15,263 bases of DNA, taken from IMG/VR virus record IMGVR_UViG_2529292726_000023, positions 1 to 15,263 of that record; one strand, given 5' to 3'. Below the pieces are notes generated by a model. That model did no database searches, had not been told where the DNA came from, and saw only the letters and a list, made by a program, of their open reading frames with translations. Shown here one piece after another: positions 1 through 15,263 of the stretch. Position 1 is the stretch's first letter. The number at the start of each line of letters is the position of its first letter. Both the position numbers and the translations under genes were made by a program. The stretch comes from a virus (Duplodnaviria; Heunggongvirae; Uroviricota; Caudoviricetes).

Positions 1-403
<403 letters not shown>

Positions 404-1014: not shown

Positions 1015-1460
1015 CCAAAGCAGTGGCTGTTGTGGTGACCGGTGCTGATCTCCGGCTTGCGGTTATTTCAGACTCTCACGGGCGTTTAATTGCCCCGCCG
1101 AACAGCTCTTTTCCGCAATAGCTGCAATGTCTTTCGCGCATCAGCCTGCGCATTCACCACAACGCTGAGAGCACTTAGCCAGTTACGGCACCACACTTTG
1201 TCGCGGTTCCATAAATGCCCTCATCGTTGCACCCTGGTCTCTTCCCAGGCGTCAAACCGAATCGCCACGCTGGTTAGGCGTCTTATCAGCATCATCATTG
1301 ACTTGCACATTCCGGCTACCTGGTTTGTTTGCTCGAGCAAGGAGTGGATTGTCCCCTTTAACGTCACCAGACCGCTAACGACGCATGTGCCATACGCCGT
1401 ATTACAACCAAATTTTGTTAGTACCTTGTTTGTTGGTCTGGAAAGAAAGATAAAATGAAG

Positions 1461-1498
1461 TTGCGCATTATGCAAGTGTTTTGTTGCGAGATGTGCAA
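1461..1498. promoter_or_regulatory. Putative left operator region: two operator-like 15-mers TTGCGCATTATGCAA (1461-1475) and TTGCGAGATGTGCAA (1484-1498)
   Basis: Same TTGCG-N-GCAA architecture as the 15-mer TTGCGCGTTAAGCAA at 2267-2281 in the repressor/cro intergenic region; sits immediately left of the repressor gene where OL/pL is expected in lambdoid phages. Confidence 0.4.
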
Positions 1499-1504
1499 TT
1501 TTAT

Positions 1505-1533
1505 GGGAAATGAAAAGCCACCTTTGGGTGGCT
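1505..1533 (-). terminator. Intrinsic terminator downstream of the repressor gene
   Basis: Stem AGCCACC (1516-1522) / GGTGGCT (1527-1533), loop TTTG; on the minus strand followed by TTTCATTT; lies 21 nt past the repressor stop codon. Confidence 0.55.
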
Positions 1534-1553
1534 AATTGATGAGGAGGTAAGGG

Positions 1554-2246
1554 TTAATTGTGTCGCTTAAGGGTTTGTGACTGGCTGATTAAGACCTTTC
1601 CAAAGACCATAAACCGGTGTTCATTTTCGCTGGTAATTCCCCATTCACGGTAAATCTGGTTATCAGAAATCACCAGTAGTTTGTCAGGTATCATTTGCAG
1701 TCGTTTGACATAAATTTTATCATCAAAACCAAATACATAGATACCATCTCCATCAAACTGATTGATACTGACATCAACGAAGATGAGATCTCCTGGCTCA
1801 ATGGTTGGACACATACTGTCCCCACGAACGTTGATAACTTTAATGTGATTGGCTGGTCGTCCGCCAAACATCGATACAGCATTATCAGTTCTGTATTCAA
1901 TGGCATGAATCACATCAATGACATCACCGCCCTGGATAAGGCCATTTCCCGCACTGGCACTGACATCCAGCATTTCAATACGGAATACATCCTTCACCTG
2001 CGCAACATCCTCACTAATACTGTTTTTACATACAGTATTACTTTTGAAGTCTGAGGTAAAGAGATCAGCAATATCAACACCTAAGCTCCTGGCAATATTA
2101 CTCAGGGCTTGTTCAGTGAATTGTTTCTGCTTACCTGTTTCCAGGCGCGAGATATTCGCCGCATCCACTCCTATTGCTTCAGCGAGATCGGCGATTTTCA
2201 TGTTCTTCGCCTGGCGAAGTTGTCTGACTCGATTTCCTATGTTCAT
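1554..2246 (-). CDS. CI-like prophage repressor, 230 aa: N-terminal XRE-type HTH plus C-terminal S24 (LexA-like) self-cleaving peptidase domain
   Basis: MNIGNRVRQLRQAKNMKIADLAEAIGVDAANISRLETGK HTH; C-terminal GDSMCPTIEPGDLIFVD with downstream KRLQ consistent with the Ser/Lys dyad; divergent from a Cro-like gene. Confidence 0.9.
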   Translation of the reverse strand: MNIGNRVRQLRQAKNMKIADLAEAIGVDAANISRLETGKQKQFTEQALSNIARSLGVDIADLFTSDFKSNTVCKNSISEDVAQVKDVFRIEMLDVSASAGNGLIQGGDVIDVIHAIEYRTDNAVSMFGGRPANHIKVINVRGDSMCPTIEPGDLIFVDVSINQFDGDGIYVFGFDDKIYVKRLQMIPDKLLVISDNQIYREWGITSENEHRFMVFGKVLISQSQTLKRHN

Positions 2247-2343
2247 GCGTTTATTACATTTCTTTATTGCGCGTTAAGCAAATCAACTTGCGCAAAATAT
2301 TTGCGTGAAATAACATGCTCATCACGCAATATGTGGAGGTTAT
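2247..2343. promoter_or_regulatory. Immunity switch intergenic region (OR-like operators, divergent promoters for repressor and cro)
   Basis: 97-bp gap between divergent repressor and cro genes containing TTGCGCGTTAAGCAA (2267-2281), near-palindromic CGCAAAATATTTGCG (2291-2305) and CACGCAATAT (2322-2331); GGAGG RBS before cro ATG. Confidence 0.5.
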
Positions 2344-2604
2344 ATGCAATCACCATTACGAAATGTGCGTAAGGCGCACGGGCTTACTTTGCAGCATGTT
2401 GCTGCGGGCGTTCAGGTTAATCCAGCAACGCTGAGTCGTATTGAGAGACTGGAACAAATTCCATCTATCGATCTTGCAGAGCGTCTGGCCAATTTTTTTA
2501 AGGGAGAAATCAGCGAAATGCAGATTCTCTATCCTGCACGCTTTCAATCTAGTCAAAACCGGAATGAGTTAAAACCACAGGAACAGGAGGTAAGCCGTGG
2601 GTAA
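2344..2604 (+). CDS. Cro-like HTH transcriptional regulator, 86 aa
   Basis: MQSPLRNVRKAHGLTLQHVAAGVQVNPATLSRIERLEQIPSIDLAERLANFF is a helix-turn-helix fold; position divergent from the repressor; GGAGG RBS. Confidence 0.8.
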   Translation: MQSPLRNVRKAHGLTLQHVAAGVQVNPATLSRIERLEQIPSIDLAERLANFFKGEISEMQILYPARFQSSQNRNELKPQEQEVSRG

Positions 2605-3148
2605 GCATCACTGGAAAGTGGAAAAACAACCTGAGTGGTACGTGAAAGCTATCAGAAAAACTATCGCGGCATTGCCAGGTGGTTACGCTGAAGCTGCTGA
2701 CTGGCTGGATGTAACAGAGAACGCATTATTTAACCGCCTTCGTGCCGATGGCGATCAGTTTTTTCCGTTGGGATGGGCAATGGTTTTACAGCGTGCGGCT
2801 GGTACTCACCACATTGCGGATGCTGTCGCACAGTCTGCTGGTGGGGTGTTTGTATCACTTCCTGAAATTGAGGAAGTAGAGAACGCCGATATAAACCAGC
2901 GCCTGCTGGAAGTCATCGAACAGATCGGGAGTTACTCAAAGCAGATTCGTTCGGCAATCGAAGACGGGGTAGTGGAGCCACATGAGCAGACAGCAATTAA
3001 TGATGAGTTGTATCTGTCGATTTCGAAGCTCCAGGAACATGCGGCACTGGTCTACAAAATTTTCTGCGTTCCAGAAAAGAGTGACGCCCGCGAGTGTGCA
3101 GCTCCGGGCGTCGTGGCGTTTTGTGTCTGTGGAGAAACTAACGCATGA
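2597..3148 (+). CDS. Hypothetical early regulatory protein in the CII position, 183 aa; family uncertain (possibly CII/CP76-like)
   Basis: GTG start with AGGAGG RBS 6 nt upstream, overlapping the cro stop; stop overlaps the next start (ATGA). Family assignment is from position and memory only. Confidence 0.5.
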   Translation: MGKHHWKVEKQPEWYVKAIRKTIAALPGGYAEAADWLDVTENALFNRLRADGDQFFPLGWAMVLQRAAGTHHIADAVAQSAGGVFVSLPEIEEVENADINQRLLEVIEQIGSYSKQIRSAIEDGVVEPHEQTAINDELYLSISKLQEHAALVYKIFCVPEKSDARECAAPGVVAFCVCGETNA

Positions 3149-3750
3149 ACAGTTTAACGGCAAATAACCGTTGGTCGCAACAGCTGGTGGTCCGCGTGGC
3201 TGAACACCTGTTGTTACGGCATGAATGCAGATTACCAAATCACCTGGCTGTAAGTAACCACAGAGAACTTTACCTGACTGTGGGGGGCGAGTTGTGCAGG
3301 AACTTAACCGCTGGTTTCGTGACGGAAGAGGACTTTATGTTCATGTTATTCGTTGGGAGCCAGAAACACAGCGCGTTATCTATCTTCGCAAAGACTACCC
3401 GCATGAGTGCTTTAGTCCTTTGTGGAAATTCAGGCGTGATTTTGTTGAGTGTGAAGGACCACCAGCACATTGATTCTGCCATTCCGGGACGTTACACTGT
3501 TCAGGCACCTTATAAAGCGGGTGCCGGGCGTGGAAACCCGGAATTCACCAAAGCGCACAACCGCGCTCTTGCGGTTTTTTTGTGTCATGAGCAGCATTAC
3601 GCCCAAATTATGGTGGGGCGTGCAGGGCCAACTTCGGTTGGGCCGGGTTCTTTGGTGACCGGTATTTCCACCCCTGTACGTCTCACCACCAATAAGGTCG
3701 TGGAAAGCCTTGGTGGTGAGTTATTTAAAATCACCAAAGAGGCTGCCATC
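3145..3750 (+). other. Ambiguous coding region upstream of rha, in frame with it (no stop between 3145 and 4296); possible N-terminal extension, fusion or decayed gene
   Basis: ATG at 3145 is translationally coupled (ATGA) to the upstream gene, but the Rha domain has its own RBS and start at 3751. An alternative-frame ORF at 3294-3473 has a GGGGGG RBS 6 nt before its GTG. Confidence 0.35.
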
Positions 3751-4296
3751 ATGGCTACGATCCCAACCCTCACTCAACCTGAAATTGCCATCGTTGATGG
3801 TCAGGCTGTTACTTCATCCCTGGCTGTTGCCAACTTCTTCTCCAAACGTCATGACGATGTACTGAAAAAGATCCGCACGCTTGAATGCTCCGCATCATTC
3901 ACTGCCCGCAATTTTTCGGTGAGTGATTACACCGATTGCACAGGCCGCAAACTACCTTGCTATCAAATAACCCGCGACGGCTTTGCGTTTCTTGCTATGG
4001 GTTTCACGGGTAAACGTGCTGCCCAGTTCAAAGAGGCATACATCAATGCCTTTAACCAGATGGAGAAACAGCTTTCAAGGCCCGCTGTACCGAGCGACGT
4101 TGCACATAACGCCAGCGTTCTCTGTTCCTACATTTCATCAATTCATCAGGTCTGGCTGCAGCAGCTTTATCCTATGTTGGCAAAAGCCGAATCTCCGCTG
4201 GCTGTTAGCTTATATGACTATATTAATGATGCTTCGGCGCTGGCCTGCCTCATAAATTTGTCGCTGAACCCTTCAGAGGTAAGGGGGCGCAAATGA
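3751..4296 (+). CDS. Rha family phage regulatory protein, 181 aa
   Basis: MATIPTLTQPEIAIVDGQAVTSSLAVANFFSKRHDDVLKKIRTL matches the Rha domain N-terminal signature; AAAGAGG RBS 8 nt upstream of ATG 3751. May instead be the C-terminal part of a 383-aa ORF starting at 3145. Confidence 0.8.
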   Translation: MATIPTLTQPEIAIVDGQAVTSSLAVANFFSKRHDDVLKKIRTLECSASFTARNFSVSDYTDCTGRKLPCYQITRDGFAFLAMGFTGKRAAQFKEAYINAFNQMEKQLSRPAVPSDVAHNASVLCSYISSIHQVWLQQLYPMLAKAESPLAVSLYDYINDASALACLINLSLNPSEVRGRK

Positions 4297-4517
4297 TCCG
4301 GAATATTTTCAAACGTTTTACCAATCAGACTTTCCGTTGTCCTCGTCCGGGTCAGTGGTACACCACGCCTGCAGGGCATGTTCTACGTGTTAGCCTGGTT
4401 GACCGTGAATGTCAGAAGGTGGTTTGTGAACCGCTGGGCCGTAATTACCGCGTCAGTATGCCGCTTATAGCCTTTCGCTCCAGAAAAAACATGAAGCATC
4501 TCGGAGGTGCAGCATGA
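4293..4517 (+). CDS. Hypothetical small protein, 74 aa
   Basis: ATGA overlap with the upstream stop and with the downstream start (translational coupling on both sides); GGTAAGGGGG RBS. No family recognised. Confidence 0.5.
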   Translation: MIRNIFKRFTNQTFRCPRPGQWYTTPAGHVLRVSLVDRECQKVVCEPLGRNYRVSMPLIAFRSRKNMKHLGGAA

Positions 4518-5332
4518 GTATGGAGCTGATGGTTAAAGCGATGAAAATTCGAGTGGGTAATCCATTGCGAAAACTGGTTCTGATCAAGCTGGCTGATAAT
4601 GCCAGCGATCAGGGTGAGTGCTGGCCCAGCTACCAGCATATTGCTGACCAGTGCGAGATTAGCAAACGTTCTGTGATGAATCATATTGCGGCCCTTTGTG
4701 AGTCCGGGCTGGTAAAAAAAGTCACCCGGAAAGGTGAAAAAGGTAACTCAAGTAATATCTATCTCCTTCATCTGGATGGTGCAGGAGATTCACTAGGGGG
4801 TAGTGCAAATAATTCACTATCTGGTGCAGCAAATTCACCAGGTAGTGCAGGAGTTGCACCAGGGGGTAGTGCAGGAGATTCACCCAGAACCAGTCACTCT
4901 TTTGAACCAGTCAAAGAACCAGTCAATGAACCAATAGCTGTTGGTGCATCAGTTGATGAGTCCGTGCGAGTTCGTTCAAACCGACCGGAATATTCTCCGG
5001 AGTTTGAGCAGGCATGGCTGGCATATCCCAAACGTGCTGGTGGCAATTCAAAATCTGCAGCCTTCAAAGCCTGGAAAGCCCGTTTGAATGAGGGGGTAAA
5101 CCCCGAAACCATGCTGGAAGGTGTGAAACGCTATGCGGGCTGGGTATCTGCAATGGGTAACAGCGGCACACAATTTGTGAAACAGGCTGTCACGTTCTTT
5201 GGTCCGGATCGTCATTTCGAAGAATCCTGGGAAGTTCCTGCGGTATCTGCAGCCAGACGTGAGGACCCGTACTTCAAATCCAGTTACGACAACGTGGACT
5301 ACAGCCAGATCCCGGCAGGATTCAGGGGGTGA
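4514..5332 (+). CDS. O-like replication initiator candidate, 272 aa: N-terminal winged-HTH DNA-binding domain, Gly/Ser/Ala-rich linker, conserved C-terminal domain
   Basis: N-terminus LRKLVLIKLADNASDQGECWPSYQHIADQCEISKRSVMNHIAALCESGLVKK resembles phage replication-protein HTH domains; the linker coincides with iteron-like DNA repeats, as in lambda O/ori. Confidence 0.6.
   Translation: MSMELMVKAMKIRVGNPLRKLVLIKLADNASDQGECWPSYQHIADQCEISKRSVMNHIAALCESGLVKKVTRKGEKGNSSNIYLLHLDGAGDSLGGSANNSLSGAANSPGSAGVAPGGSAGDSPRTSHSFEPVKEPVNEPIAVGASVDESVRVRSNRPEYSPEFEQAWLAYPKRAGGNSKSAAFKAWKARLNEGVNPETMLEGVKRYAGWVSAMGNSGTQFVKQAVTFFGPDRHFEESWEVPAVSAARREDPYFKSSYDNVDYSQIPAGFRG
4778..4935. repeat. Iteron-like direct repeats inside the replication gene (candidate origin of replication)
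   Basis: Repeated units GGTAGTGCA (x3), GTGCAGGAGATTCAC (x2), ATTCAC (x4), then AACCAGTCA (x3) within about 160 bp. Confidence 0.5.
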
Positions 5333-5334
5333 TC

Positions 5335-5823
5335 ATGAGTCTTTTGAATGACGTTCAGAAATTCATTGAAGCCCATCCGGGGTGTACTTCCGGAGACATT
5401 GCGGATGCTTTTGCAGGTTACTCACGGCAGCGCGTACTGCAGTCAGCAAGCAAGTTACGTCAGAGTGGGCGTGTGGCTCACCGTTGTGAAGGGGATACAC
5501 GCAGACATTTCCCGCGCCTGACTGAGAGAGCGCAGGAGCCGGAACCACAACCAGTTCGTGAAACCAGACCTGTGCGCAATTTCTATGTCGGCACTAACGA
5601 TCCCCGGGGGATTTTGTGCCTGACCCGCCAGGCTGAAGAACTGGAGTCAAGAGGCTTATACCGTCGTGCTGCAACCGTGTGGATGGCGGCATTCCGTGAA
5701 AGCCACTCCCAGCCAGAACGAAACAATTTTCTGGCGCGTCGTGAGCGGTGCTTACGGAAAAGCAGCAAGCGCGCTGCATCGGGTGAAGAGTGGTATCTGT
5801 CAGGGAATTACGTGGGGGCTTAA
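5335..5823 (+). CDS. PerC-like transcriptional regulator domain protein, about 162 aa
   Basis: C-terminal QAEELESRGLYRRAATVWMAAF...LARRERCL resembles the PerC/Pch motif; ATG 5335 has an AGGGGG RBS. The GTG at 5329 in the ORF track is less likely. Confidence 0.5.
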   Translation: MSLLNDVQKFIEAHPGCTSGDIADAFAGYSRQRVLQSASKLRQSGRVAHRCEGDTRRHFPRLTERAQEPEPQPVRETRPVRNFYVGTNDPRGILCLTRQAEELESRGLYRRAATVWMAAFRESHSQPERNNFLARRERCLRKSSKRAASGEEWYLSGNYVGA

Positions 5824-6476
5824 TGAGTAATAAATATTGCCAGGCGCTGGTGGAACTGCGGAACAAACCAGCCCATGAACTGAAGGACGTGGGCGATCAG
5901 TGGCGCACGCCGGACAACATTTTCTGGGGAATTAACACCCTGTTTGGCCCGTTTGTTCTGGATCTGTTCACTGACGGTGATAACGCCAAATGTGCTGCGT
6001 ATTACACGGCGGAAGACAACGCGCTGGCGCATGACTGGTCAGAACGTCTTGCGGAGCTTAAAGGTGCTGCCTTTGGTAATCCCCCATACAGCCGCGCCAG
6101 TCAGCATGAGGGGCAATACATCACCGGCATGCGTTACATCATGAAGCATGCCAGTGCCATGCGTGATAAGGGCGGGCGCTATGTTTTCCTGATCAAAGCT
6201 GCCACCAGCGAAGTTTGGTGGCCGGAAGATGCAGACCATATTGCTTTTATTCGCGGGCGTATTGGTTTTGAACTGCCTGCCTGGTTTATCCCGAAGGATG
6301 AGAAGCAGGTGCCGACAGGAGCGTTCTTCGCTGGTGCTATTGCTGTTTTCGACAAGACCTGGAAGGGACCGGCAATCAGCTACATCGGGCGCGATGAACT
6401 TGAGGCATGTGGTGAGGCCTTTCTGGCGCAGGTTCGCCAGCAGGCGGAAAAACTGGTCAGGGAGATGGCGGCATGA
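5823..6476 (+). CDS. Phage-type DNA N6-adenine methyltransferase, 217 aa
   Basis: MSNKYCQALVELRNKPAHELKDVGDQWRTPDNIFWGI... with WRTP and NPPY (FGNPPYSRA) motifs typical of the phage Dam family; start overlaps the upstream stop (TAATG). Confidence 0.85.
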   Translation: MSNKYCQALVELRNKPAHELKDVGDQWRTPDNIFWGINTLFGPFVLDLFTDGDNAKCAAYYTAEDNALAHDWSERLAELKGAAFGNPPYSRASQHEGQYITGMRYIMKHASAMRDKGGRYVFLIKAATSEVWWPEDADHIAFIRGRIGFELPAWFIPKDEKQVPTGAFFAGAIAVFDKTWKGPAISYIGRDELEACGEAFLAQVRQQAEKLVREMAA

Positions 6477-6799
6477 CGACGTTAACTCAATGCCAGCAGC
6501 AGGGGCTGGATATGCTGATTTCTTACCAGAAAGAACGTGGCTTCCCGCCAACCAATCAGGAGGTGGCAACCATGCTGGGATACCGTTCAGTGAATGCAGC
6601 GGTGGAGCATCTTCGCGCACTGGAGAAAAAAGGCGTCATCACGATAAAGCGTGGCGTGGCCCGGGGGATCACGCTTCATACCGCAGTGAAGGACGACGAC
6701 AGCGAAGCGGTCGGGATTATCCGCTCACTGCTTGCCGGTGAGGAAAACGCAAGGCTGCGTGCAACCCACTGGTTACATGAGAGGGGCCTGAAAGCATGA
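6473..6799 (+). CDS. LexA N-terminal DNA-binding-domain-like protein, 108 aa, with no peptidase domain
   Basis: LTQCQQQGLDMLISYQKERGFPPTNQEVATMLGYRSVNAAVEHLRALEKKGVITIKRGVARGITL parallels the LexA winged-helix domain; protein ends about 40 aa later without an S24 domain. Confidence 0.75.
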   Translation: MTTLTQCQQQGLDMLISYQKERGFPPTNQEVATMLGYRSVNAAVEHLRALEKKGVITIKRGVARGITLHTAVKDDDSEAVGIIRSLLAGEENARLRATHWLHERGLKA

Positions 6800-7185
6800 A
6801 GCTGATCCTGCCTTTTCCGCCCAGCGTGAACACGTACTGGCGACACCCCAACAAAGGGGCGTTTGCAGGTAAGAGCCTGATAAGCGCGGCGGGGCGCAAA
6901 TTCCAGAGCGCGGCGTGCGCAGCAATAGTTGAGCAGTTACGTCGTCTACCAAAACCAACGTCGGCACCTGCTTCAGTGGAGATCGTGTTGTTTCCTCCGG
7001 ATAACCGGATCCGCGATCTGGACAACTATAACAAGGCGCTGTTTGACGCGTTGACCCACGCGGGTGTGTGGGAAGACGACAGACAGGTGAAAAGAATGCT
7101 GGTGGAGTGGGGACCGGTTATCCCGAAAGGGAAGGTCGAGATCACCATCAGTAAGTACGAGAAAACGGCGGGTGCAGCCGCCTGA
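6796..7185 (+). CDS. rusA: RusA Holliday-junction resolvase, 129 aa
   Basis: MKLILPFPPSVNTYWRH...RDLDNYNKALFDALTHAGVWEDDRQV matches RusA conserved motifs; typical nin-region position. Confidence 0.9.
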   Translation: MKLILPFPPSVNTYWRHPNKGAFAGKSLISAAGRKFQSAACAAIVEQLRRLPKPTSAPASVEIVLFPPDNRIRDLDNYNKALFDALTHAGVWEDDRQVKRMLVEWGPVIPKGKVEITISKYEKTAGAAA

Positions 7186-7204
7186 TCAAGAGGAGAAACG
7201 AAGT

Positions 7205-8002
7205 ATGAATAATCTGATGGTCATTGATGGTATTGAAGTTCGTCGTGATGCTTATGGTCGTTACAGCCTGAACGATCTGCACAGGGCTGCCGGTTCTCTG
7301 GATAAGCATAAGCCTGCATTCTGGCTCCGCAATGAGCAAACTGAACGTTTAATAAGCGAGTTGCAGATTTGCAACTCGGTCAATATAGAGCCAGTTAACG
7401 TTATTCGTGGCGGAAATAACCAGGGGACGTATGTCTGCAAAGAACTGGTGTATGCCTATGCAATGTGGATAAGCCCGTCATTCCATCTGAAGGTGATCCG
7501 TACTTTCGACATGGTAACCAGCGCACCGGAAAAATTATCCGGACAGGCTGCTGACAAGATGCAGGCTGGTGTGATTCTGCTGGACTTTATGCGCCGGGAA
7601 TTAAACCTGTCTAACTCTTCAGTGCTTGGGGCCTGTCAGAAACTCCAGGAGGCTGTTGGCTTACCGAATCTGGCACCGCGCTATGCCATTGATGCTCCTG
7701 CTGACGCGCCTGATGGCTCAAGCCGCCCCACGCTGTCACTGAGTGCACTGCTGAAGCAGTATGGTATCCGCCTGACAGCTAATCAGGCATATCACCAGAT
7801 GGCGAAGCTGGGGATCGTTGAACAACGTGAACGATACAGCCGCACTGCGATTAACAACATCAAAAAATTCTGGTCGCTGACGGCGAAAGGCTGCATGTTC
7901 GGCAAGAACATCACCAGTCCCGCAAATCCGCGCGAGACGCAGCCGCATTTCTTCGAATCCCGGTTCCCTGAGCTGTTAAAGCTGCTCGATACCGTTCATT
8001 GA
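7205..8002 (+). CDS. KilA-N domain protein, 265 aa
   Basis: N-terminus MNNLMVIDGIEVRRDAYGRYSLNDLHRAAG...KPAFWLRNEQTERLISEL...GGNNQGTYVCKELVYAYAMWISPSFHLKVIRTFD is a KilA-N fold; GAGGAGAAA RBS before ATG 7205. Confidence 0.8.
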   Translation: MNNLMVIDGIEVRRDAYGRYSLNDLHRAAGSLDKHKPAFWLRNEQTERLISELQICNSVNIEPVNVIRGGNNQGTYVCKELVYAYAMWISPSFHLKVIRTFDMVTSAPEKLSGQAADKMQAGVILLDFMRRELNLSNSSVLGACQKLQEAVGLPNLAPRYAIDAPADAPDGSSRPTLSLSALLKQYGIRLTANQAYHQMAKLGIVEQRERYSRTAINNIKKFWSLTAKGCMFGKNITSPANPRETQPHFFESRFPELLKLLDTVH

Positions 8003-8003
8003 G

Positions 8004-8999
8004 GTGACCGTGAGAGCGCTACTGACCCCTGAAATTGCCCCGCGTATGGGGATCGTATTGTTCAGGCCAGGTTCAGAGCTGATGCCCCTGTTTATGCAGG
8101 GGCGTGTCCTGCTGGAGCCTGAGCCGGAACGTTATTCATCTTTCGCCAGTGGTGCCGTTCCGGCTGCATCACAACCGCTGGCGGATGATCCTGCCGTTTG
8201 GGCCGTGTTCCGCAATGAGGCAGTGATTCGTCGTGCTGGTGGAGTGGAATGTCTTGAACGCTGGTTACTTCGTGAAAAAGGTTGCCAGTGGCCTCATTCC
8301 GACTGGCACAGCGAGAACATGACCACAATGCGACACACGCCGGGCGCAATCCGTCTGTGCTGGCACTGCGATAACCAGCTGCGCGATCAGTTCACGGAAC
8401 GGCTGGAATCAATGGCAACGGATAACTGTACCCGCTGGGTGTTGTCTGTTGTGCGTCGGGATCTCGGTTTTGATGACAGTCACGTTGTGACAATGCCGGA
8501 ACTGTGCTGGTGGCTGATTCGTAATGACCTGGCGGATGCCTTACCGGAAAGTGCAGCCCGTAAGGCACTGAGATTACCGAAGCCTGTTGTGCCGTCTGTC
8601 ACCCGGGAAAGTGACCTTGTGCCTTCGGTTCCTGCCACCAGCATCATCCAGGATAAAGCGAAAAAGGTGCTGGCGCTGAAAGTGGATCCGGAGTCGCCGG
8701 AGTCTTTTATGTTACGCCCAAAACGTCGCCGCTGGGTTAATGAAAAGTACACGCGCTGGGTTAAGACACAGCCGTGTGCATGTTGTGGAAAGCCTGCTGA
8801 TGATCCCCACCACCTGATAGGTCACGGTCAGGGAGGAATGGGAACAAAAGCGCATGACCTTTTTGTGTTGCCTTTGTGCAGAAAGCATCACGACGAGCTG
8901 CATGCGGATACCGTGGCATTTGAAGAGAAGTATGGCTCCCAGCTGGAGCTGATATTTCGTTTTATCGATCGTGCGCTGGCAATTGGCGTGCTGGCCTGA
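8004..8999 (+). CDS. DUF968 protein (YdfU-like), about 330 aa, with C-terminal HNH-like Cys/His motif
   Basis: C-terminal [43 protein letters not shown]; sits just upstream of Q as DUF968 genes do in Qin-like prophages. True start may be GTG 8010 (GAGG RBS). Confidence 0.75.
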
Positions 9000-9016
9000 T
9001 TTTGTGGAGAAAGTTG

Positions 9017-9382
9017 ATGCGTGATATTCAAATGGTTCTTGAACGTTGGGGGGCATGGGTGGCAAATAATCACGAGGATGTCACCTGGTCGTCTATTGCT
9101 GCAGGATTTAAAGGACTAATCCCTTCAAAAGTAAAATCCCGCCCGCAATGTTGTGACGATGACGCGATGATCATTTGTGGGTGCATGGCTCGCCTGAAAA
9201 AGAACAACAGCGATTTGCACGATTTATTAGTGGATTATTATGTAGGTGGTATGACGTTTATGGCGCTTGCCCGTAAACATGGGCGTTCTGATTGCTGGGT
9301 TGGGCGTTTATTGCAAAAGGCTGAAGGTGTAGTTGATGGCATGTTAATGATGTTAGAAATTGAGCTAGAGATGGATCGTTAG
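9017..9382 (+). CDS. Late-gene antiterminator Q (QuuD-like family), 121 aa
   Basis: [76 protein letters not shown] matches the Q antiterminator family of DLP12/phage-82 type as I remember it; GGAG RBS. Confidence 0.85.
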
Positions 9383-9423
9383 AAGACCTCTTATTGAGGG
9401 GGTAATTGAATCAGTTTAATGTG

Positions 9424-9458
9424 TGGGGAGTCGATTTATTCTCCCCATTTATTTAATT
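9424..9458 (+). terminator. Hairpin plus A/T-rich tract downstream of Q
   Basis: Stem GGGGAG (9424-9429) / CTCCCC (9440-9445), 10-nt loop, followed by ATTTATTTAATTAATTT; a possible promoter (TTGAGG 9393-9398, 17 nt, TAATGT 9416-9421) lies just upstream. Confidence 0.35.
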
Positions 9459-9465
9459 AATTTAC

Positions 9466-9912
9466 TTAAGGTTTTAATTCATCAAGACGTTGTTGGATAG
9501 TGTTTTTGCTTGCGTTGTCTGTTATAGCCATTTGTTGTACTTGCCCCATTGCCATTTGAGTTTCCATCCACATATCGGCCCACACTTTTGTATCGTTATT
9601 AACTTGAGCGATAGTAAATCTGACTTTTGATACCGGGGTTGTTGAATAGGCATTTCCGATTAACATTTGTCCAAAAACAGCAGAGCCGCCTTCCAGTTCT
9701 TTACCACATATAACACTGCTGTTATCCGCGTTGTAAATTATCAACCCTCTACTATTGCAGTAATTCACAAGGGCATCTTTGACTTTATCTTTTGTCGTAT
9801 TTTGATAAACCCCCTCAGGTTTTCCTGATTGAGTTTTCTTTATCAATGGTACGGAAGAAGTACAACCTGAAATGATAGTTGCGCTAAGTAATAGTACAGT
9901 CATTTTATTCAT
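9466..9912 (-). CDS. Lipoprotein of unknown function, 148 aa, AT-rich moron between Q and the tRNA array
   Basis: N-terminus MNKMTVLLLSATIISGCTSS is a signal peptide with lipobox (ISGC); opposite strand to flanking late genes; local GC visibly lower than the neighbours. Confidence 0.7.
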   Translation of the reverse strand: MNKMTVLLLSATIISGCTSSVPLIKKTQSGKPEGVYQNTTKDKVKDALVNYCNSRGLIIYNADNSSVICGKELEGGSAVFGQMLIGNAYSTTPVSKVRFTIAQVNNDTKVWADMWMETQMAMGQVQQMAITDNASKNTIQQRLDELKP

Positions 9913-10041
9913 GTTTCTTATCCATTGTTAAGGGTATACCCACACAATTATTTTTATTGGAGATGAATAATCAACCGTTTACAATCGTAAAAAATCAAAT
10001 ATGCTGTTAAGAGTGGTTACTTCGCCACACAACTTAACCCC

Positions 10042-10061
10042 GCCGCTGAGCGGTTTTTTTT
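10042..10061 (+). terminator. Intrinsic terminator (short GC stem plus T8)
   Basis: GCCGC-TGA-GCGG hairpin at 10042-10053 followed by TTTTTTTT at 10054-10061. Confidence 0.55.
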
Positions 10062-10142
10062 GTACCTGTAAACTTGGTGCAGTACAGTAAACACGCTGGT
10101 GGACAAGTGAAAAACAGCATTTAATCAGGCCTTCTGAAGATA

Positions 10143-10171
10143 TTGCAGTATTAATTCTGTAACGTTATTAT
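10143..10171 (+). promoter_or_regulatory. Candidate sigma70 promoter for the tRNA array
   Basis: -35 TTGCAG (10143-10148), 17-nt spacer, -10 TATTAT (10166-10171), about 9 nt before the first tRNA. Confidence 0.45.
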
Positions 10172-10180
10172 TCTGTGCGC

Positions 10181-10256
10181 GGCCCTTTAGCTCAGTGGTG
10201 AGAGCGAGCGACTCATAATCGCCAGGTCGCTGGTTCAAATCCAGCAAGGGCCACCA
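10181..10256 (+). tRNA. tRNA with CAU anticodon, most like tRNA-Ile2 (lysidine type; a plain scan would call it Met)
   Basis: 76-nt cloverleaf GGCCCTTTAGCTCAGTGGTGAGAGCG...CTCATAA...GGTTCAAATCCAGCAAGGGCCACCA; anticodon CAT at 10214-10216; encoded CCA; resembles enterobacterial ileX/ileZ. Confidence 0.85.
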
Positions 10257-10257
10257 A

Positions 10258-10334
10258 CTGCCACTAGCTCATCAGGAAAGAGCGTCAACCCTTTAAGTTG
10301 AGAGTGCGAGGTTCGAGTCCCCGGTGGCGGTCCA
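10258..10334 (+). tRNA. tRNA-like gene with noncanonical anticodon loop CCTTTAA (position 33 is C); anticodon reads UUU (Lys) by standard numbering; identity uncertain, possibly a pseudo-tRNA
   Basis: Acceptor CTGCCAC/GTGGCGG (one G-U pair), D-stem GCTC/GAGC, anticodon stem TCAAC/GTTGA, T-loop TTCGAGT with one A-C mismatch in the T-stem, encoded CCA. Confidence 0.5.
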
Positions 10335-10336
10335 GT

Positions 10337-10412
<76 letters not shown>

Positions 10413-10415
10413 TGT

Positions 10416-10490
<75 letters not shown>

Positions 10491-10496
10491 GTTAGA

Positions 10497-10542
10497 GTCT
10501 TTCAGTCTGCGATGATGGGAAATCCCGGAGTGACTGAAAGAC
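10497..10542. repeat. Perfect 11-bp inverted repeat GTCTTTCAGTC / GACTGAAAGAC with 24-nt spacer
   Basis: Direct reading; immediately downstream of the tRNA array. Confidence 0.7.
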
Positions 10543-10550
10543 GTTTAAGT

Positions 10551-10620
10551 TATGAATGATCGCTTTTTTTGCAAAATTGCTGTGCAGAAATACTAACCTT
10601 CGGGCAGGCGATCATTCATA
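10551..10620. repeat. Perfect 13-bp inverted repeat TATGAATGATCGC / GCGATCATTCATA with 44-nt spacer
   Basis: Direct reading; spacer contains a T7 run and a possible promoter (TTGCAA ... TACTAA). Confidence 0.7.
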
Positions 10621-10696
10621 AGCACTCTGCTTTTATTCCGATTAACTGTGGGTGGTTTGTTGGATAGAGTGCTTCCCTTACTGTATATATCGTTTC

Positions 10697-10720
10697 GCCC
10701 GCTTTTGCGGGTTTTTCTTT
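10697..10720 (+). terminator. Strong intrinsic terminator just upstream of the lysis cassette (candidate tR'-type terminator read through by Q-modified polymerase)
   Basis: GCCCGC-TTTT-GCGGG hairpin (10697-10711) followed by TTTTTCTTTT. Confidence 0.65.
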
Positions 10721-10781
10721 TCAAATCCCTTTCATTTCTCAGTGTAAAACTACGCCATCCGTTATTTGCGGAGGTGAGGCT

Positions 10782-10997
10782 ATGAAATCCATGGACAAAA
10801 TTTCAACGGGCATTGCCTACGGCACCTCCGCAGGCAGTGCTGGCTACTGGTTTTTACAGTGGCTTGATCAGGTCAGTCCGTCACAGTGGGCTGCGATTGG
10901 TGTACTGGGGAGTCTGGTTCTGGGCTTCCTGACTTATCTGACAAATCTGTACTTCAAAATAAGAGAAGATAAGCGTAAGGCTGCACGGGGAGAGTAA
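10782..10997 (+). CDS. Phage-21-type class II holin (pinholin) with dual-start motif: 71-aa antiholin from ATG 10782 and 68-aa holin from ATG 10791
   Basis: [71 protein letters not shown] is near-identical in pattern to phage 21 S21 / DLP12 EssD as I remember them; GGAGGTGAGG RBS. Confidence 0.9.
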
Positions 10998-11001
10998 TTC
11001 A

Positions 11002-11346
11002 ATGACACAAAAATATGAACTGATTGTGAAAGGGATCCGCAATTTTGAGAATAAAGTTACGGTAACTTTAGCGTTACGGGACAAAAAACGCTTTGACGGT
11101 GAAATTTTAGACCTGGACATCTCGCTGGACCGTGTTGAAGGTGCCGCGCTGGAGTTTTATGAGGCAGCAGCCAGAAGGAGCATCAGACAGGTCTTCCTGG
11201 ATGTTGCTGCCGGGTTATGTGAAGGGGATGAGCAGTCACCGGAAAAGCGCCCCATAATTTTAGAGGCGCAGGGTGTGTGGATAACCTACAAAGGAAAACT
11301 GCCGGGAAGAATTACTGGTTCACTGAAGACTCCGCCGAAATGGTAA
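11002..11346 (+). CDS. Hypothetical protein, 114 aa, between holin and endolysin (same position as Qin YdfR); function unknown
   Basis: ATG 11002 with GGGGAGAG RBS, 4 nt after the holin stop; product MTQKYELIVKGIRNFENKVTVTLALRDKKRFDGEILDLD...; 3' end overlaps the convergent gene by 35 bp. Confidence 0.6.
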   Translation: MTQKYELIVKGIRNFENKVTVTLALRDKKRFDGEILDLDISLDRVEGAALEFYEAAARRSIRQVFLDVAAGLCEGDEQSPEKRPIILEAQGVWITYKGKLPGRITGSLKTPPKW

Positions 11347-11584
11347 TTTCACCAGCATATTTTTCTTCCAGTAATACCGCCAGCCACTTGAAAGAATTTT
11401 GTTGTTGCTGGGACCATTTGGGGTTGAGTGATTCAAGCTGGAGCGATGCCAGTGTTGGTTGCATTTGTTCCTTGGGAATTGAGAATGCCAGATATGAAAA
11501 TGCGACAGTAAGGGCATTTACATCATCCCGAAGCTTGGAAATGCAGTCGAGCAACTCCTGTAGAGAAATGGTGCTATTGTCCAT
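11312..11584 (-). CDS. Hypothetical small protein, 90 aa, antisense to the lysis operon; one hydrophobic segment; function unknown
   Basis: ATG at 11584 on the minus strand with GAGAGGA RBS 6 nt upstream; product MDNSTISLQELLDCISKLRDDVNALTVAFSYLAFSIPKEQ...; candidate promoter TTGAAT (11624-11629) / TACAAT (11599-11604). Confidence 0.55.
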   Translation of the reverse strand: MDNSTISLQELLDCISKLRDDVNALTVAFSYLAFSIPKEQMQPTLASLQLESLNPKWSQQQQNSFKWLAVLLEEKYAGEITISAESSVNQ

Positions 11585-11689
11585 AAACAATCCTCTCTAT
11601 TGTATTTAACTATTCCTTGCCTGATTCAACAGGCCGGGACAGATAAACATATCCAGGGTTCAGAAACCGATAAATCCTGATAAATATCC

Positions 11690-12223
11690 ATGAGCGCAAA
11701 AATCAAATACGGCCTGTCAGCTGCTGTTCTGGCGCTGATTGCTGCAGGCGCGTCTGCTCCTCAAATACTTGACCAGTTTCTGGATGAAAAAGAGGGTAAC
11801 CACACTACGGCATACCGCGATGGTTCCGGTATATGGACCATCTGTCGTGGTGCCACAATGGTGGATGGTAAGCCCGTCATACCGGGAATGAAGCTGTCGA
11901 AGGAAAAATGCGACCAGGTTAACGCTATTGAACGTGATAAGGCGCTGGCATGGGTGGAGCGCAATATTAAAGTACCACTGACCGAACCACAGAAAGCGGG
12001 TATAGCGTCATTTTGTCCCTATAACATTGGCCCCGGTAAGTGTTTCCCGTCGACGTTTTATAAGCGGCTGAATGCCGGTGATCGTAAGAGTGCATACGAG
12101 GCGATTCGCTGGTGGATAAAAGATGGTGGGCGCGATTGCCGCATACGTTCAAATAACTGCTATGGACAGGTTATTCGTCGTGACCAGGAAAGCGCATTAG
12201 CCTGTTGGGGGATAGATCAGTGA
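11690..12223 (+). CDS. SAR endolysin (T4-lysozyme-like muramidase with N-terminal signal-anchor-release domain), 177 aa
   Basis: N-terminal [18 protein letters not shown] hydrophobic SAR segment, then E...D...T lysozyme motif region ([23 protein letters not shown]); follows a pinholin as in phage 21. Confidence 0.9.
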
Positions 12224-12687
12224 GCAGAGTCGCCGCGATTATTTATGCTCTGGTTATCTGCATCATCGTCTGCCTGTCGTGGGCGGTCAATCATTGCCGT
12301 GATAACGCCATCGCCTACAAAGAACAGCGTGATAAAAAAGTCAGTGAGCTGAAGCAGGCGACCGCCACCATTACTGACATGCAGCAACGCCAGCGTGCTG
12401 CTGATGTACTCGATGCTAAATACACGAAGGAGTTGGCTGATGCGAAAGCTGAAAATGATGCTCTTCGGCGCAAGCTTGATAATGGTGGTCGGGTGCTCGT
12501 CAAAGGAAAATGCTCTGTGCCATCCTCAGCCGAAACCTCCAGCGCCTCCGGCATGGGCAATGATGCCACCGTCGAACTCTCTCCAGTTGCTGGACGAAAC
12601 GTTCTCGGTATCCGGGACGGAATCATCAGAGACCAGACAGCACTGAGAACGCTTCAGGAATATATCAGGACGCAATGCCTTCGATGA
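12220..12687 (+). CDS. Rz inner-membrane spanin, about 155 aa
   Basis: GTG 12220 overlaps the endolysin stop (GTGA); N-terminal [22 protein letters not shown] then charged coiled-coil region; contains Rz1 in the +1 frame. Confidence 0.85.
12440..12646 (+). CDS. Rz1 outer-membrane lipoprotein spanin, 68 aa, embedded in Rz
   Basis: [39 protein letters not shown]: signal peptide, lipobox VVGC, proline-rich; AAGGAG RBS 7 nt upstream. Confidence 0.85.
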
Positions 12688-12861
12688 TAGCGATAATTTT
12701 ACTCATCATCCTTCACATCTGGCTCTGTAGACAGGGTGGTGATCACTTCTGGAGTGAATCCAGATTAAACATCTCATTGCTGATGCTTGAAGTTGAGCAT
12801 CTGGCGCGCGGTAAGGGGCTGCGTTGAAATAAGAGCCAGTCATTACAAATACCAGGATTTA

Positions 12862-12887
12862 GCCTCGTATTCGCGGGGCTTTTTATT
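12862..12887 (+). terminator. Intrinsic terminator candidate downstream of the lysis genes
   Basis: GCCTCG-TATTCG-CGGGGC hairpin (one G-U pair) followed by TTTTTATT. Confidence 0.5.
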
Positions 12888-12944
12888 GCCATTACAAAAG
12901 CCACTCCCTACAGAGTGGCTTTGATAATGGCTTATACCCTACAC

Positions 12945-12970
12945 GGGATAACTTAACTGATATCCCTTTT
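12945..12970 (+). terminator. Second hairpin plus T-run
   Basis: GGGATA-N10-TATCCC followed by TTTT. Confidence 0.4.
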
Positions 12971-13312
12971 AACGGATAAAGGTATTCAAGCCTGACACAT
13001 CATGCGCTGTATCGTCGCCGTATTCCCGTATTAACAGAGACCGTAGCCCGACGGGGAACTCCTTCTGCGAGAGTGTGCGGGAATAATCAAAAACGATGCA
13101 CACCGGGTTTTTACCGCGTTTATGGTTCGCGGGTTTGTCCCTCATGCTCGCCAGTCCTGTGCGGGGGTGGAAGAAACAGGATACTCACACAGATTCTTGT
13201 GGGCACGATGCTATTCCTTTCTGGATTATCCCGATGCCATTCATGCAAGGCGCTGTATCAGACGTTCGTCATGGCTGTCAGGCTGACGGGTCCTCCCGGT
13301 GGGGTGGCCTGC

Positions 13313-13333
13313 CACGGGGCGGGAGCGTCGCGG
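13313..13333. other. Candidate cohesive-end site (cosN-like) upstream of the terminase genes
   Basis: ACGGGGCGGGAGCGTCGCGG resembles the lambda cos region ACGGGGCGGCGACCTCGCGGG as I recall it, followed by an AT-rich stretch before the small terminase gene. Confidence 0.45.
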
Positions 13334-13501
13334 AAAAAGGCTAGTTTTTGCATTTTTATCGGCCACCATCATCTTTGCATCTTATTGATTATTAATGTTA
13401 TTTGTTTTTTGTATGTCGAATTGAGTGTTTTTTGTTCGACATCGAACGCGTTTTCTTAAAGTTGTTCGCACGATGCATGTTTAAAGCTCTCCGGAGGAAA
13501 T

Positions 13502-13993
13502 ATGGATCATGAGTTGAAAAACCTGGTGCTGAATATTAATCAACTGGCGGCTTTATCTGGTCTGCACCGCCAGACTGTCGTGGCAAGACTGAAAAACATT
13601 CGTCCCGCTGGTGGACATGACAAACTCAAGCTATACCGGTTGACCGATATTCTGACTGAATTTATGGGGTTACCACCGCCGGTTGCTGAGGGCGAAATGG
13701 ATCCACATGAACGCAAAGCCTGGTATCAGTCTGAACGTGAGCGTCTTAAGTTCGAACAGGAAACGGCACAACTCATTCCGGCCAGTGATGTCAGACGGGA
13801 GTTTGCCATCTGGGCAAAAGCGGTCGTGCAGGTGCTGGAGACATTACCGGATATTCTGGAACGTGACTGCGGCCTGCAGCCTGTCGCTGTGAGCCGTGTT
13901 CAGTCCATTATTGATGATCTGCGCGATCAGATAGCCCTGCGGGTGACCGAAGCAGGTGCGGATGATGAGGAGGAATTACAGCAGGAGGAGTAA
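13502..13993 (+). CDS. Terminase small subunit (Nu1-like), 163 aa
   Basis: N-terminal HTH-like LNINQLAALSGLHRQTVVARLKNI, acidic C-terminus; directly precedes the large terminase with TAATG overlap; GGAGG RBS. Confidence 0.8.
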   Translation: MDHELKNLVLNINQLAALSGLHRQTVVARLKNIRPAGGHDKLKLYRLTDILTEFMGLPPPVAEGEMDPHERKAWYQSERERLKFEQETAQLIPASDVRREFAIWAKAVVQVLETLPDILERDCGLQPVAVSRVQSIIDDLRDQIALRVTEAGADDEEELQQEE

Positions 13994-14859
13994 TGCTGAA
14001 TCAGGAAACCGCAAAGGCAGCACGAACCGATTCAGGTTATATCCTTCGCGCACCGAGACGAATGCGGGTTGCTGATGCCGTTGCTCAGTATATGCGAGTG
14101 CCCATGGGGGCCGGGAACTCAGTCCCGTGGGATCCGCTGGTGGCACCGTATGTTCTTGAGCCGATGAACTGCCTGGCCTCGCGTGAATACGACGCAGTGA
14201 TATTTGTTGGTCCGGCACGAACCGGCAAGACTATCGGCCTGATTGACGGCTGGGTGATTTACAACGTGATTTGCGATCCTGCGGATATGCTGATCATTCA
14301 GATGACGGAGGAAAAAGCCCGCGAACACTCCAAAAAACGACTTGCCAGAACGTTTCGCGTCAGCCCGGAAGTGGTCAGTCGCCTGAGTCCGAACAAAAAT
14401 GACAACAACGTTTATGACAGAACATTCCTTGCTGGCAACTACCTGAAAATCGGCTGGCCGTCAGTCAATATCATGTCCTCATCAGATTATAAATGCGTGG
14501 CGCTGACGGATTATGACCGTTTTCCGGAAGATATTGATGGCGAGGGGGATGCCTTCTCTCTTGCCTCAAAACGTACCACCACATTTATGTCCAGTGGTAT
14601 GACGCTGGTGGAGAGTTCCCCCGGCAGGGATGTGAAGGATGTGAAATGGCGACGGACTTCACCGCATGAGGCTCCACCAACCACGGGGATACTGTCGCTC
14701 TATAACCGTGGCGATCGCCGTCGCTGGTACTGGCCCTGTCCACACTGTGGTGAGTATTTTCAGCCCTGCGGCGATGTGGTTGCTGGTTTCCGTGATATTG
14801 CCGATCCCGTGCTGGCAAGTGAGGCGGCTTATATTCAGTGTCCTTCCTGTTCATATTAG
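13993..14859 (+). pseudogene. Terminase large subunit (lambda gpA-like), truncated after about 288 codons at the IS21-family insertion
   Basis: Walker A-like FVGPARTGKT; ...DYDRFPEDIDGEGDAFSLASKRTT...YWPCPHCGEYFQ parallels lambda gpA; frame stops at 14857-14859, where the IS terminus begins. Full-length gpA is about 640 aa. Confidence 0.8.
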
Positions 14860-15263
14860 ACGTCAACTAGTTTTGCCGACTCGCGCCAACTATACTGGCC
14901 GCACCCTTCAGTGCGACATCAAGTCGCGCTTGTTACTGCCTTCGCTGTCTTTTTCCTGTAGCTTTCACCTTTCAGTTCGAACATATATCCGTGATGGATC
15001 AGCCGGTCTGCCGCCGCCACCGCCATAGTCTCATCCACGAAGATGCTGCCCCACATGCTGAACGGATGGTTACTGGTTATCACCAGGCTCCCACGTTCAT
15101 AGCGATGCGCTATTAACTCGAACAGTACTCCCGTTTCGGCGCTGTCGCGTTTGACATAGCCAAGATCATCCACCACTATCACCCGGTAGCGATCCAGTTT
15201 CAGTAGCAGCTCATTCAGTTTCAACTGCGCTCTGGCTTTACGTAGTTCCTGCAACAACTCTCC
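14848..15263 (-). mobile_element. IS21-family insertion sequence, partial copy (IstB side), continuing beyond the window end
   Basis: Terminus TGTTCATATTAGACGTCAACTAG at 14848 shares the TTAGACG.CAAC motif with the other IS end; IstB C-terminus encoded at 14919-15263. Confidence 0.75.
14919..15263 (-). CDS. istB: IS21-family IstB helper ATPase, C-terminal about 114 aa only (gene starts beyond the window)
   Basis: ...YRVIVVDDLGYVKRDSAETGVLFELIAHRYERGSLVITSNHPFSMWGSIFVDETMAVAAADRLIHHGYMFELKGESYRKK has the Walker B (VVDDLGY) and C-terminal features of IstB/DnaC-like ATPases. Confidence 0.85.
   Translation of the reverse strand, partial: GELLQELRKARAQLKLNELLLKLDRYRVIVVDDLGYVKRDSAETGVLFELIAHRYERGSLVITSNHPFSMWGSIFVDETMAVAAADRLIHHGYMFELKGESYRKKTAKAVTSAT

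Follow-up and report, generated by a model that had tools for sequence, protein, structure and literature searches.

A three-hairpin RNA element in the 3' trailer of a lambdoid prophage tRNA unit: a likely stable noncoding RNA

Introduction

The subject of this study is an element at positions 10491-10720 of a 15,263-nucleotide stretch of caudoviral DNA (IMG/VR record IMGVR_UViG_2529292726_000023, positions 1 to 15,263; the whole stretch is referred to as the window), where it lies between a tRNA array and a holin gene. Its closest described counterparts are RNAs encoded beside stable-RNA genes or in the late-operon region of lambdoid phages. In Escherichia coli, 3'ETS-leuZ and RtT (tyrT operon) are released from the 3' trailers of tRNA operons, and in bacteriophage T4 the RNAs C and D (RNAC and RNAD) are co-transcribed and co-processed with the phage tRNAs. 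The function of these T4 RNAs, also termed species 1 and 2 RNAs, is still unknown (PMC9697503). The E. coli small RNAs (sRNAs) rrA, rrB and rrF lie between dual rRNA terminators (PMC8144298). Lambda 6S RNA and StxS are short transcripts from the late promoter PR' to the terminator tR' that are made in lysogens and read through under the antiterminator Q, and in Stx phages this PR'-to-tR' by-product, StxS, is a regulatory sRNA (PMC7547250). The prophage interval between Q and the lysis genes also houses STnc100/PasD, PasA/PasC, IsrI and IsrJ, which are Hfq-bound sRNAs with defined seeds (bioRxiv 10.64898/2026.05.13.724894; PMC8550237). Finally, the put antiterminator RNA of HK022 and HK639 consists of two adjacent stem-loops in the nascent transcript, upstream of terminators (PMC9378689).

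The best explanation of 10491-10720, to which we assign a probability of roughly 0.6, is that it forms the end of an autonomous tRNA 'moron', comprising its 3' trailer and its terminator, in the late-operon leader of a lambdoid prophage, with the trailer likely yielding a stable noncoding RNA. Like 3'ETS-leuZ, RtT and rrA/rrB/rrF, the element sits immediately 3' to a stable-RNA gene, shares the strand of that gene, would be co-transcribed with it, lacks a promoter of its own and ends at an intrinsic terminator; a normal tRNA 3' cut would free it. Unlike them, it is phage-borne, more structured (three covarying hairpins) and located before lysis genes, and it has no sequence or Rfam relationship to them. 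With T4 RNAC and RNAD it shares a location beside phage tRNA genes; whereas these were detected experimentally in a virulent myovirus, the element is predicted from sequence in a temperate lambdoid prophage, and no homology is expected. It resembles 6S RNA and StxS as a terminated noncoding transcript of a lambdoid late-operon leader, but these start at PR' and end at tR', whereas the element starts after tRNAs, is mostly driven by a tRNA promoter and has no tie to a Q allele. The Pas, STnc100 and Isr genes occupy the same genomic niche and have the same modular build of gene plus terminator. Two adjacent stem-loops upstream of terminators recall put, which lies just downstream of early promoters; the element differs from it in sequence, size and location.

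Conserved RNA structure formed by the inverted repeats

The window belongs to a lambdoid prophage of E. coli. Over 10100-10800 it is 99.9% identical to phage PhiR47_1 (100% over 10491-10720), and several further coliphages, including HK639, carry homologues of this region. Within 10491-10720 the original prediction, made from the letters of the DNA alone, had described an 11-bp perfect inverted repeat with a 24-nt spacer, a 13-bp repeat with a 44-nt spacer and, about 60 bp before the holin start, a GC hairpin with a T-run. The first repeat was recovered as described (10497-10507/10532-10542) by our repeat search; the second keeps its 44-nt spacer but is 14 bp long, all perfect (10550-10563/10608-10621), and a third, unlisted perfect repeat of 9 bp was found at 10620-10628/10666-10674. 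The terminator is likewise present and ends 61 nt ahead of the holin start codon (ATG, 10782). The whole window holds only three perfect repeats that reach 11 bp or more within 80 nt, two of them in 10491-10720; by our own calculation over ~230 x 50 position/spacing combinations, a perfect 14-mer is expected ~4e-5 times and an 11-mer ~3e-3 times. The + strand RNA of 10491-10725 folds at -80.9 kcal/mol, with z = -5.9 against 200 dinucleotide shuffles. The low expected counts, the rarity of such repeats across the window and the z score of the fold together exclude chance as their source. The folded RNA and its terminator comprise the following parts:

10497-10542, + strand: hairpin 1 (H1), an 11-bp stem, an internal loop and an apical stem
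10550-10621, + strand: hairpin 2 (H2), from the repeat search, RNAalifold and pair counts; present in all homologues
10622-10672, + strand: hairpin 3 (H3), from the 9-bp repeat and covariation; abuts H2 without a spacer
10675-10696, + strand: A/U-rich linker, unpaired in the minimum-free-energy and centroid folds; not conserved between clades
10697-10720, + strand: intrinsic terminator, from the terminator scan; ends the tRNA/trailer unit

H1 contains an invariant asymmetric internal loop (GAUGA/GA), a GGG/CCC apical stem and a variable loop. The strand polarity of the internal loop is unlike that of a standard K-turn, and we make no claim to a K-turn or C/D-box. The outer stem of H2, 14 perfect base pairs or 16 with a U·G and a U-A pair, closes a three-way junction, from which an inner helix (10566-10573/10583-10590) with the loop AAAUUGCUG and a C(UUCG)G mini-hairpin (10597-10604) extend. 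H3 is built from a lower stem (10622-10629/10665-10672), an internal loop and upper stems at 10637-10641/10660-10664 and 10644-10647/10654-10657, the upper part being G·U-rich and formed by the invariant GGGUGGUUUGUUGG, which contains GGGU. The terminator reads GCCCGC-TTTT-GCGGGT at 10697-10712, followed by TTTTTCTTTT up to 10720, and as RNA GCCCGC-UUUU-GCGGGU plus UUUUUCUUUU.

To collect homologues, we scanned viral contigs for motifs, added a single genome scan and a single metagenome scan, and extracted sequences by BLAST, which yielded 141 loci (individual loci are denoted by L numbers) with 65 distinct core sequences; the metagenome search pattern took in part of H3, and this subset is biased towards conserved H3. 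Compensatory changes in all three stems are seen already between the window and HK639, at ~77-80% identity. For H2 and H3 together, analysis of 25 sequences by RNAalifold and pair counts gave 40 pairs with 98.3% of cells paired, compared with 35-51% in slid controls. Six pairs, in 42 cells, had changed on both sides, a level reached in 0/500 shuffles by statistics that ignore kinship among the sequences. When the set was widened to 62 distinct sequences including metagenome variants, compensatory pair types were observed in 16/39 pairs, and G·U cells numbered 334 vs 8 A·C cells. The lower stem of H3 has 3-4 consecutive covarying pairs (UA/CG, CG/UA) and 100% of its cells paired. H1 alone, from 16 distinct homologues and 17 pairs, showed 97% of cells paired (slid controls, 40-48%) and three pairs with double changes. 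Loop and junction sequences are near-invariant between clades at ~75% overall identity.

The inverted repeats are thus stems of an RNA structure that is kept by compensatory change on the + strand. That the RNA belongs to the same strand as the tRNAs and late genes follows from the G·U excess, from a + strand advantage of ~20 kcal/mol (-80.9 vs -61.3 for the - strand) and from the scores of our covariance model R1 on the window (+ strand 140 bits, - strand 20 bits). The possibility raised at the outset that the repeats are protein-binding sites is contradicted by these data: arm sequences vary while pairing stays, and the 334 G·U vs 8 A·C cells indicate selection on a single RNA strand. A protein-bound DNA palindrome would conserve both arms and would not produce this asymmetry. 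The other possibility, a structured leader RNA, is backed by the covariation.

Several further candidates were examined and rejected. A 14-codon ATG frame in H2, encoding MNDRFFCKIAVQKY, is interrupted by a T-run that varies from T6 to T9 among near-identical copies, and by indels from clade to clade; the list of open reading frames (ORFs) holds none of at least 50 aa that overlaps 10491-10720. A transposable element or miniature inverted-repeat transposable element (MITE) does not fit ~one copy per prophage, a fixed position and absence from plasmids. A riboswitch-like alternation of antiterminator and terminator was dismissed, the terminators differing between clades and the core being constant.

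The element is coupled to the tRNA array and to no Q allele

The genes and signals needed to place the element in the late-operon leader are the following:

9002-9382: Q21-family antiterminator Q (Pfam PF06530)
10040-10062, + strand: tR'-type intrinsic terminator, from the terminator scan; upstream of the tRNA array
10143-10171, + strand: sigma-70 promoter of the tRNA unit, from conserved hexamers and spacing
10181-10490, + strand: tRNA array Met(CAU)-Lys(UUU)-Thr(UGU)-Gly(UCC), from ARAGORN and Rfam tRNA
10782-10997, + strand: S21-type holin gene, from the ORF list (Pfam PF04971, E = 1.4e-35)

Its place between Q and holin, with a strong terminator just before the latter, had led the original prediction to regard 10491-10720 as the expected neighbourhood of the Q-dependent late promoter, the Q-utilisation site (qut) and tR'. 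The promoter prediction it called for returned no sigma-70-like site on the + strand of 10491-10781 by consensus scan. The strong terminator at 10697-10720 follows the tRNA operon. A separate tR'-type terminator, CCCGCCGCTGAGCGG plus T8, is found upstream of the tRNAs at 10040-10062, with promoter-like sites ahead of it at 9958-10005. The homology that the window shares with PhiR47_1 starts exactly at the 10040-10062 terminator. In PhiR47_1, a first copy of the CCCGCCGCTGAGCGG terminator lies ~100 nt after its lambda-type Q and is preceded by TTGCAT-17-TAAGAT and then AACGATGGG, which we take to be a lambda-type PR' with its pause-inducing element; this arrangement adjoins Q, and ~800 bp separate it from the tRNAs downstream. 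Terminators of a similar kind are found before the tRNA promoter in L032 and L036 and before tRNA-Asn in HK639. The short PR' transcript probably has its real end at the 10040-10062 terminator, and candidates for the PR' that serves the Q21-family Q of the window are 9958-10005 or a site directly after Q near 9395-9452. As a separate observation, the two copies of the CCCGCCGCTGAGCGG terminator in PhiR47_1 (L001 ~3255-3290, 3960-3990) lie on either side of a moron of two ORFs, an arrangement suggestive of terminators acting as joints for recombination.

The same element is found behind three unrelated families of Q: PF06530 (window, HK639), PF03589 (PhiR47_1, L011) and PF06323 (L036, L027). 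Q proteins recognise only their cognate promoter and qut. Because qut is Q-specific and the element is linked to three Q families, 10491-10720 is not a Q-utilisation site. The view that the stretch is a Q-dependent late promoter with qut and tR', or that its repeats are duplex-DNA sites for a regulatory protein, is largely refuted already, and we give it next to no weight. The original prediction had named, as evidence that would speak against it, a late promoter immediately downstream of Q in combination with unconserved repeats; the predicted promoter does map near Q, but the repeats are conserved. In their conservation, they follow the tRNA unit and not the Q allele.

In most loci a tRNA array ending in tRNA-Gly(UCC) is found directly upstream of the element. 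H1 of the window begins 6 nt after tRNA-Gly, its extended stem 1-2 nt after. In L051 it is H2 that begins 1 nt after the end of tRNA-Gly, and in an alignment (A2) H2 directly follows the tRNA-Gly 3' end in L036, L075, L122, L076 and L053. With H2 directly abutting tRNA-Gly in L051, L036 and L075, there is no room for a promoter between the two. The element is accordingly coupled physically to the 3' end of tRNA-Gly and to no Q allele.

Such tight juxtaposition also bears on an explanation in which the hairpins act in cis. Excision of a tRNA leaves a 5'-monophosphate end on the downstream RNA, and the 5' hairpin of ompA is known to block 5'-end-dependent attack by RNase E. The hairpins could in the same way protect the Q-antiterminated late mRNA after tRNA excision, in line with the long stable stem no more than 2 nt from the tRNA-Gly CCA (H1 in the window; H2 in L051 and L036) and with the position of the element, which always precedes the lysis genes and shares the strand of the late genes. 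A generic hairpin, however, needs neither conserved loops nor three domains. A terminator, and often sRNA genes (STnc100, isrI), separate the element from the first late gene. RNAs started at the tRNA promoter would stop at the terminator and leave no mRNA to protect, and loci that lack a neighbouring tRNA still retain the element. We therefore consider 5' protection an unlikely role.

Two side observations concern the sequences upstream of the element. The second tRNA of the array, Lys(UUU) in the window (10258-10334), scores only 40 bits against Rfam tRNA; elsewhere (L011, L036, L053, L079, L107, L209 and others) it is Phe(GAA or AAA), Leu(UAA) or Arg, and in some loci ARAGORN reports it as '???' with an abnormal anticodon loop. 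This position may be an anticodon-switching or decaying tRNA slot. In L112, L004, L097, L046, L074 and L167, tRNA-Gly is missing and H2 comes right after the stop codon of a small hydrophobic ORF. Its versions read MGVWMIALILIASLIAGVVIYIDVISDFIIDANFLHLL and (M/V)KFNPRQVALIGAIFILISLSGIALLVRSVVFSSF, the latter conserved at the protein level in two loci; these ORFs could encode membrane or toxin-like peptides.

A probable self-contained tRNA unit upstream of the lysis genes

The promoter of the tRNA unit comprises a -35 element TTGCAG (10143-10148), a 17-nt spacer, a -10 element TATTAT (10166-10171) and a 9-nt G+C-rich discriminator that leads to tRNA-Met. A simple consensus scan missed it because its -35 hexamer matches at 3/6 positions. 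Across ~30 distinct upstream sequences, the hexamers TTGCAN/TAT[TC]AT, their 17-nt spacing and their distance from tRNA-Met stay the same, whereas the spacer itself varies in sequence, and homology to the tRNA regions of Stx/PPompW phages begins exactly at 10143, the first position of the -35 hexamer. With a promoter upstream, whose activity is inferred, a terminator downstream, and flanking Q types and downstream genes that differ between loci, the promoter, tRNAs, trailer and terminator form a self-contained moron between tR' and the lysis cassette. This corrects the prophage map: the late promoter and tR' are placed upstream, and the tRNAs become a self-contained promoter-to-terminator unit.

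The proposed order is Q, PR'/tR' (upstream of 10062), the tRNA unit and the S21-type holin, with the unit made up of the promoter at 10143-10171, tRNA-Met-Lys-Thr-Gly, an RNA of ~185 nt spanning H1-H3, the linker and the terminator at 10697-10720. In the lysogen, the unit would be transcribed from the tRNA promoter or by read-through of tR'. Maturation of the tRNA 3' end, by RNase E and then exonucleases, would cut 5' of the trailer and free a stable RNA of ~190-230 nt with its 3' end at the terminator. The latter would bar constitutive tRNA-operon transcription from the holin, endolysin and spanin genes, probably serving as a safety barrier that separates the lysis genes from a constitutive stable-RNA promoter. 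Once the prophage is induced, RNA polymerase modified by Q would read through, and the structure would become part of the late-mRNA leader.

Relatives diverge after H3, and most have an intrinsic terminator within 15-50 nt, drawn from at least three unrelated sequence families. In HK639, the only feature that the depositors annotated here is a terminator at the corresponding position. Many relatives have additional sRNA genes, each ending in a terminator (STnc100, isrI), between the element and the lysis genes, and in L027 isrJ lies upstream of the element:

L002 2818-3023: STnc100/isrI/isrJ neighbour
L008 2129-2317: STnc100/isrI/isrJ neighbour
L112 2489-2686, - strand: STnc100/isrI/isrJ neighbour
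L176 830-1035 and 1202-1298, - strand: STnc100/isrI/isrJ neighbours
L027 1535-1608, - strand: STnc100/isrI/isrJ neighbour

The occurrence of STnc100, isrI and isrJ beside the element makes the tR'-to-lysis interval a chain of terminator-ended small-RNA genes, and extends the picture of the Q-to-lysis interval as a hotspot of small-RNA cargo (StxS, Pas RNAs, STnc100). The element itself is neither a Pas sRNA nor STnc100: the published PasA and PasD fragments differ from it, it has no Rfam matches and PasA lies on the opposite strand. PasB was discarded because it sits among structural genes (Pas preprint; enteropathogenic E. coli RIL-seq supplements).

An arrangement of adjacent stem-loops, H2 and H3, upstream of one or several terminators would also suit a cis-acting RNA of the put or EAR type that makes RNA polymerase resist downstream terminators, and HK639 carries the element and uses a put-like RNA elsewhere in its genome. 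When that putL-like RNA (L216 4188-4313, - strand) was fetched and folded, however, it bore no evident similarity to the element and was not matched by R1. In addition, an antiterminator behind a constitutive tRNA promoter would be expected to express the lysis genes in the lysogen. We regard a put-like role as very improbable.

As a separate observation on the terminators, point mutations shorten the stem (GCGG or GCG in place of GCGGG) in L104, L110, L084, L018 and other copies of the window clade. They might raise read-through into the lysis genes, and such natural copies with weakened stems suggest a link to leaky lysis.

Candidate functions of the trailer RNA

The interior of H1 aligns with the part of tRNA-Gly that comprises the anticodon stem, variable loop and T-arm, and L008 looks intermediate between tRNA-Gly and H1, with the D-arm still there. 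On these grounds H1 is probably a remodelled duplicate of tRNA-Gly. The same decayed duplicate would be at home in an inert, self-folding spacer, kept folded to spare tRNA processing and the terminator, in which the terminator alone is functional. That H1, H3 and the interior of H2 are each dispensable in some lineages, and that no target or partner was found, agrees with such a spacer. It is at odds with the near-invariance of loop and junction sequences across clades at ~75% overall identity, with the survival of the H2/H3 core where tRNA-Gly is degenerate (HK639) or absent, and with the constancy of this core across exchange of terminator, Q gene and downstream genes. We judge an inert trailer improbable. 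Conservation of AAAUUGCUG, of GGGU in GGGUGGUUUGUUGG and of the GAUGA/GA internal loop argues that the trailer is more than a spacer, and these loops, together with the persistence of H2/H3 without an intact tRNA-Gly, suggest that it has a function of its own.

Most likely, to judge from these sequence features, the trailer would be a stable noncoding RNA that acts in trans or is bound by protein. Several findings weigh against the tRNA-moron reading as a whole, or against parts of it. HK639-type arrays lack the tRNA promoter, so that read-through from PR' would be the only way to transcribe the element there. In some loci it follows a small ORF instead of a tRNA, and a few relatives have no recognisable terminator after H3. 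Not all parts are essential, as H1 is dispensable and absent in many loci (for example, those in which tRNA-Gly is directly followed by H2), L008, L027 and L118 have another sequence in place of H3, and the interior of H2 is swapped in L243 and L275, where the outer stem is kept via a C-G to U-A change. The covarying pairs come from few clades and perhaps reflect 7-12 independent events. Transcription, processing and stability of the trailer RNA are all inferred. Finally, the RNA is almost fully paired and offers no obvious single-stranded seed across clades, which is atypical for Hfq-type sRNAs; a terminator and U-tail are present, but clades do not share the sequence of the sole long unpaired stretch (10675-10696), and the loops that are conserved are short. 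A search of the window for cis targets of these loops returned only the element itself, at chance level.

In the metagenome loci L243 and L275, we also noted that the ~43-nt insert in H2 is unrelated in sequence and has a GGCAUGCC palindrome, and that H3 is kept.

A more specific and rather doubtful form of the trailer-RNA reading is that of a dedicated functional RNA working with the phage tRNA array, for example a partly tRNA-derived decoy or a protein-binding RNA. Such an RNA, if real, would titrate a host RNA-processing enzyme, a chaperone or a tRNA-targeting defence factor. It would then be a temperate-phage counterpart of T4 RNAs C and D and represent a new class of 'tRNA-operon companion' RNA. 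For the T4 tRNA-cluster RNAs, the locus provides a tractable analogue in a lambdoid phage.

Distribution and novelty

The element is present in 522-536 of 5426 complete E. coli genomes, exclusively on chromosomes and with ~one copy per prophage. Carriers include sequence type 131 (ST131), avian pathogenic (APEC) and environmental E. coli isolates, and it also occurs in genomes of Phytobacter, Enterobacter, Shigella, Yokenella and Citrobacter.

A scan of the whole window with Rfam at gathering score found nothing in 10491-10781. No Rfam 15 family, with RtT, STnc100, AgvB, AsxR, Esr41, IsrI/J/K and C4 among those covered, matched this region at that score. Even with E values up to 10, the only hits in 9900-10800 besides the tRNAs were at chance level (ceN44 15 bits, anti-hemB 14, STnc540 13). 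RefSeq has no annotation at the element in the 522-536 E. coli carrier genomes, and two phage records put a 'hypothetical protein' over it. A literature text search for the conserved motifs returned no paper, the 10,006 unnamed candidates of a catalogue of viral structured RNAs (PMC10690425) not having been compared. The element thus looks like a new, previously unannotated RNA family of a known kind, one supported by covariation and present, outside Rfam and RefSeq annotation, in ~1/10 of sequenced E. coli strains.

Other features of the window

The interval between Q and the tRNA unit contains one further gene:

9466-9912, - strand: 148-aa ORF without a Pfam match, in opposite orientation between Q and the tRNA unit

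This ORF has a promoter-like site of its own at 9931-9902. It is probably another moron, and other genes occupy the same place in PhiR47_1.

Downstream of the holin gene follow genes for a DUF1327 protein, an endolysin and Rz. The S21-type holin has a dual-start motif (MKSM), and a perfect 10-bp inverted repeat (10767-10776/10823-10832) pairs its Shine-Dalgarno region (TGCGGAGGTG) with codons ~14-17. The repeat probably forms an sdi-like structure by which the ratio of holin to antiholin is set.

Elsewhere in the window, Rfam detected isrK (67 bits) at 3505-3581, adjoining a C4 antisense RNA (83.6 bits) at 3606-3693. The pairing of isrK and C4 resembles the antirepressor control modules of the P1/P7 and Gifsy types, and a perfect inverted repeat of 11 bp (3682-3692/3710-3720) extends over the 3' end of C4.

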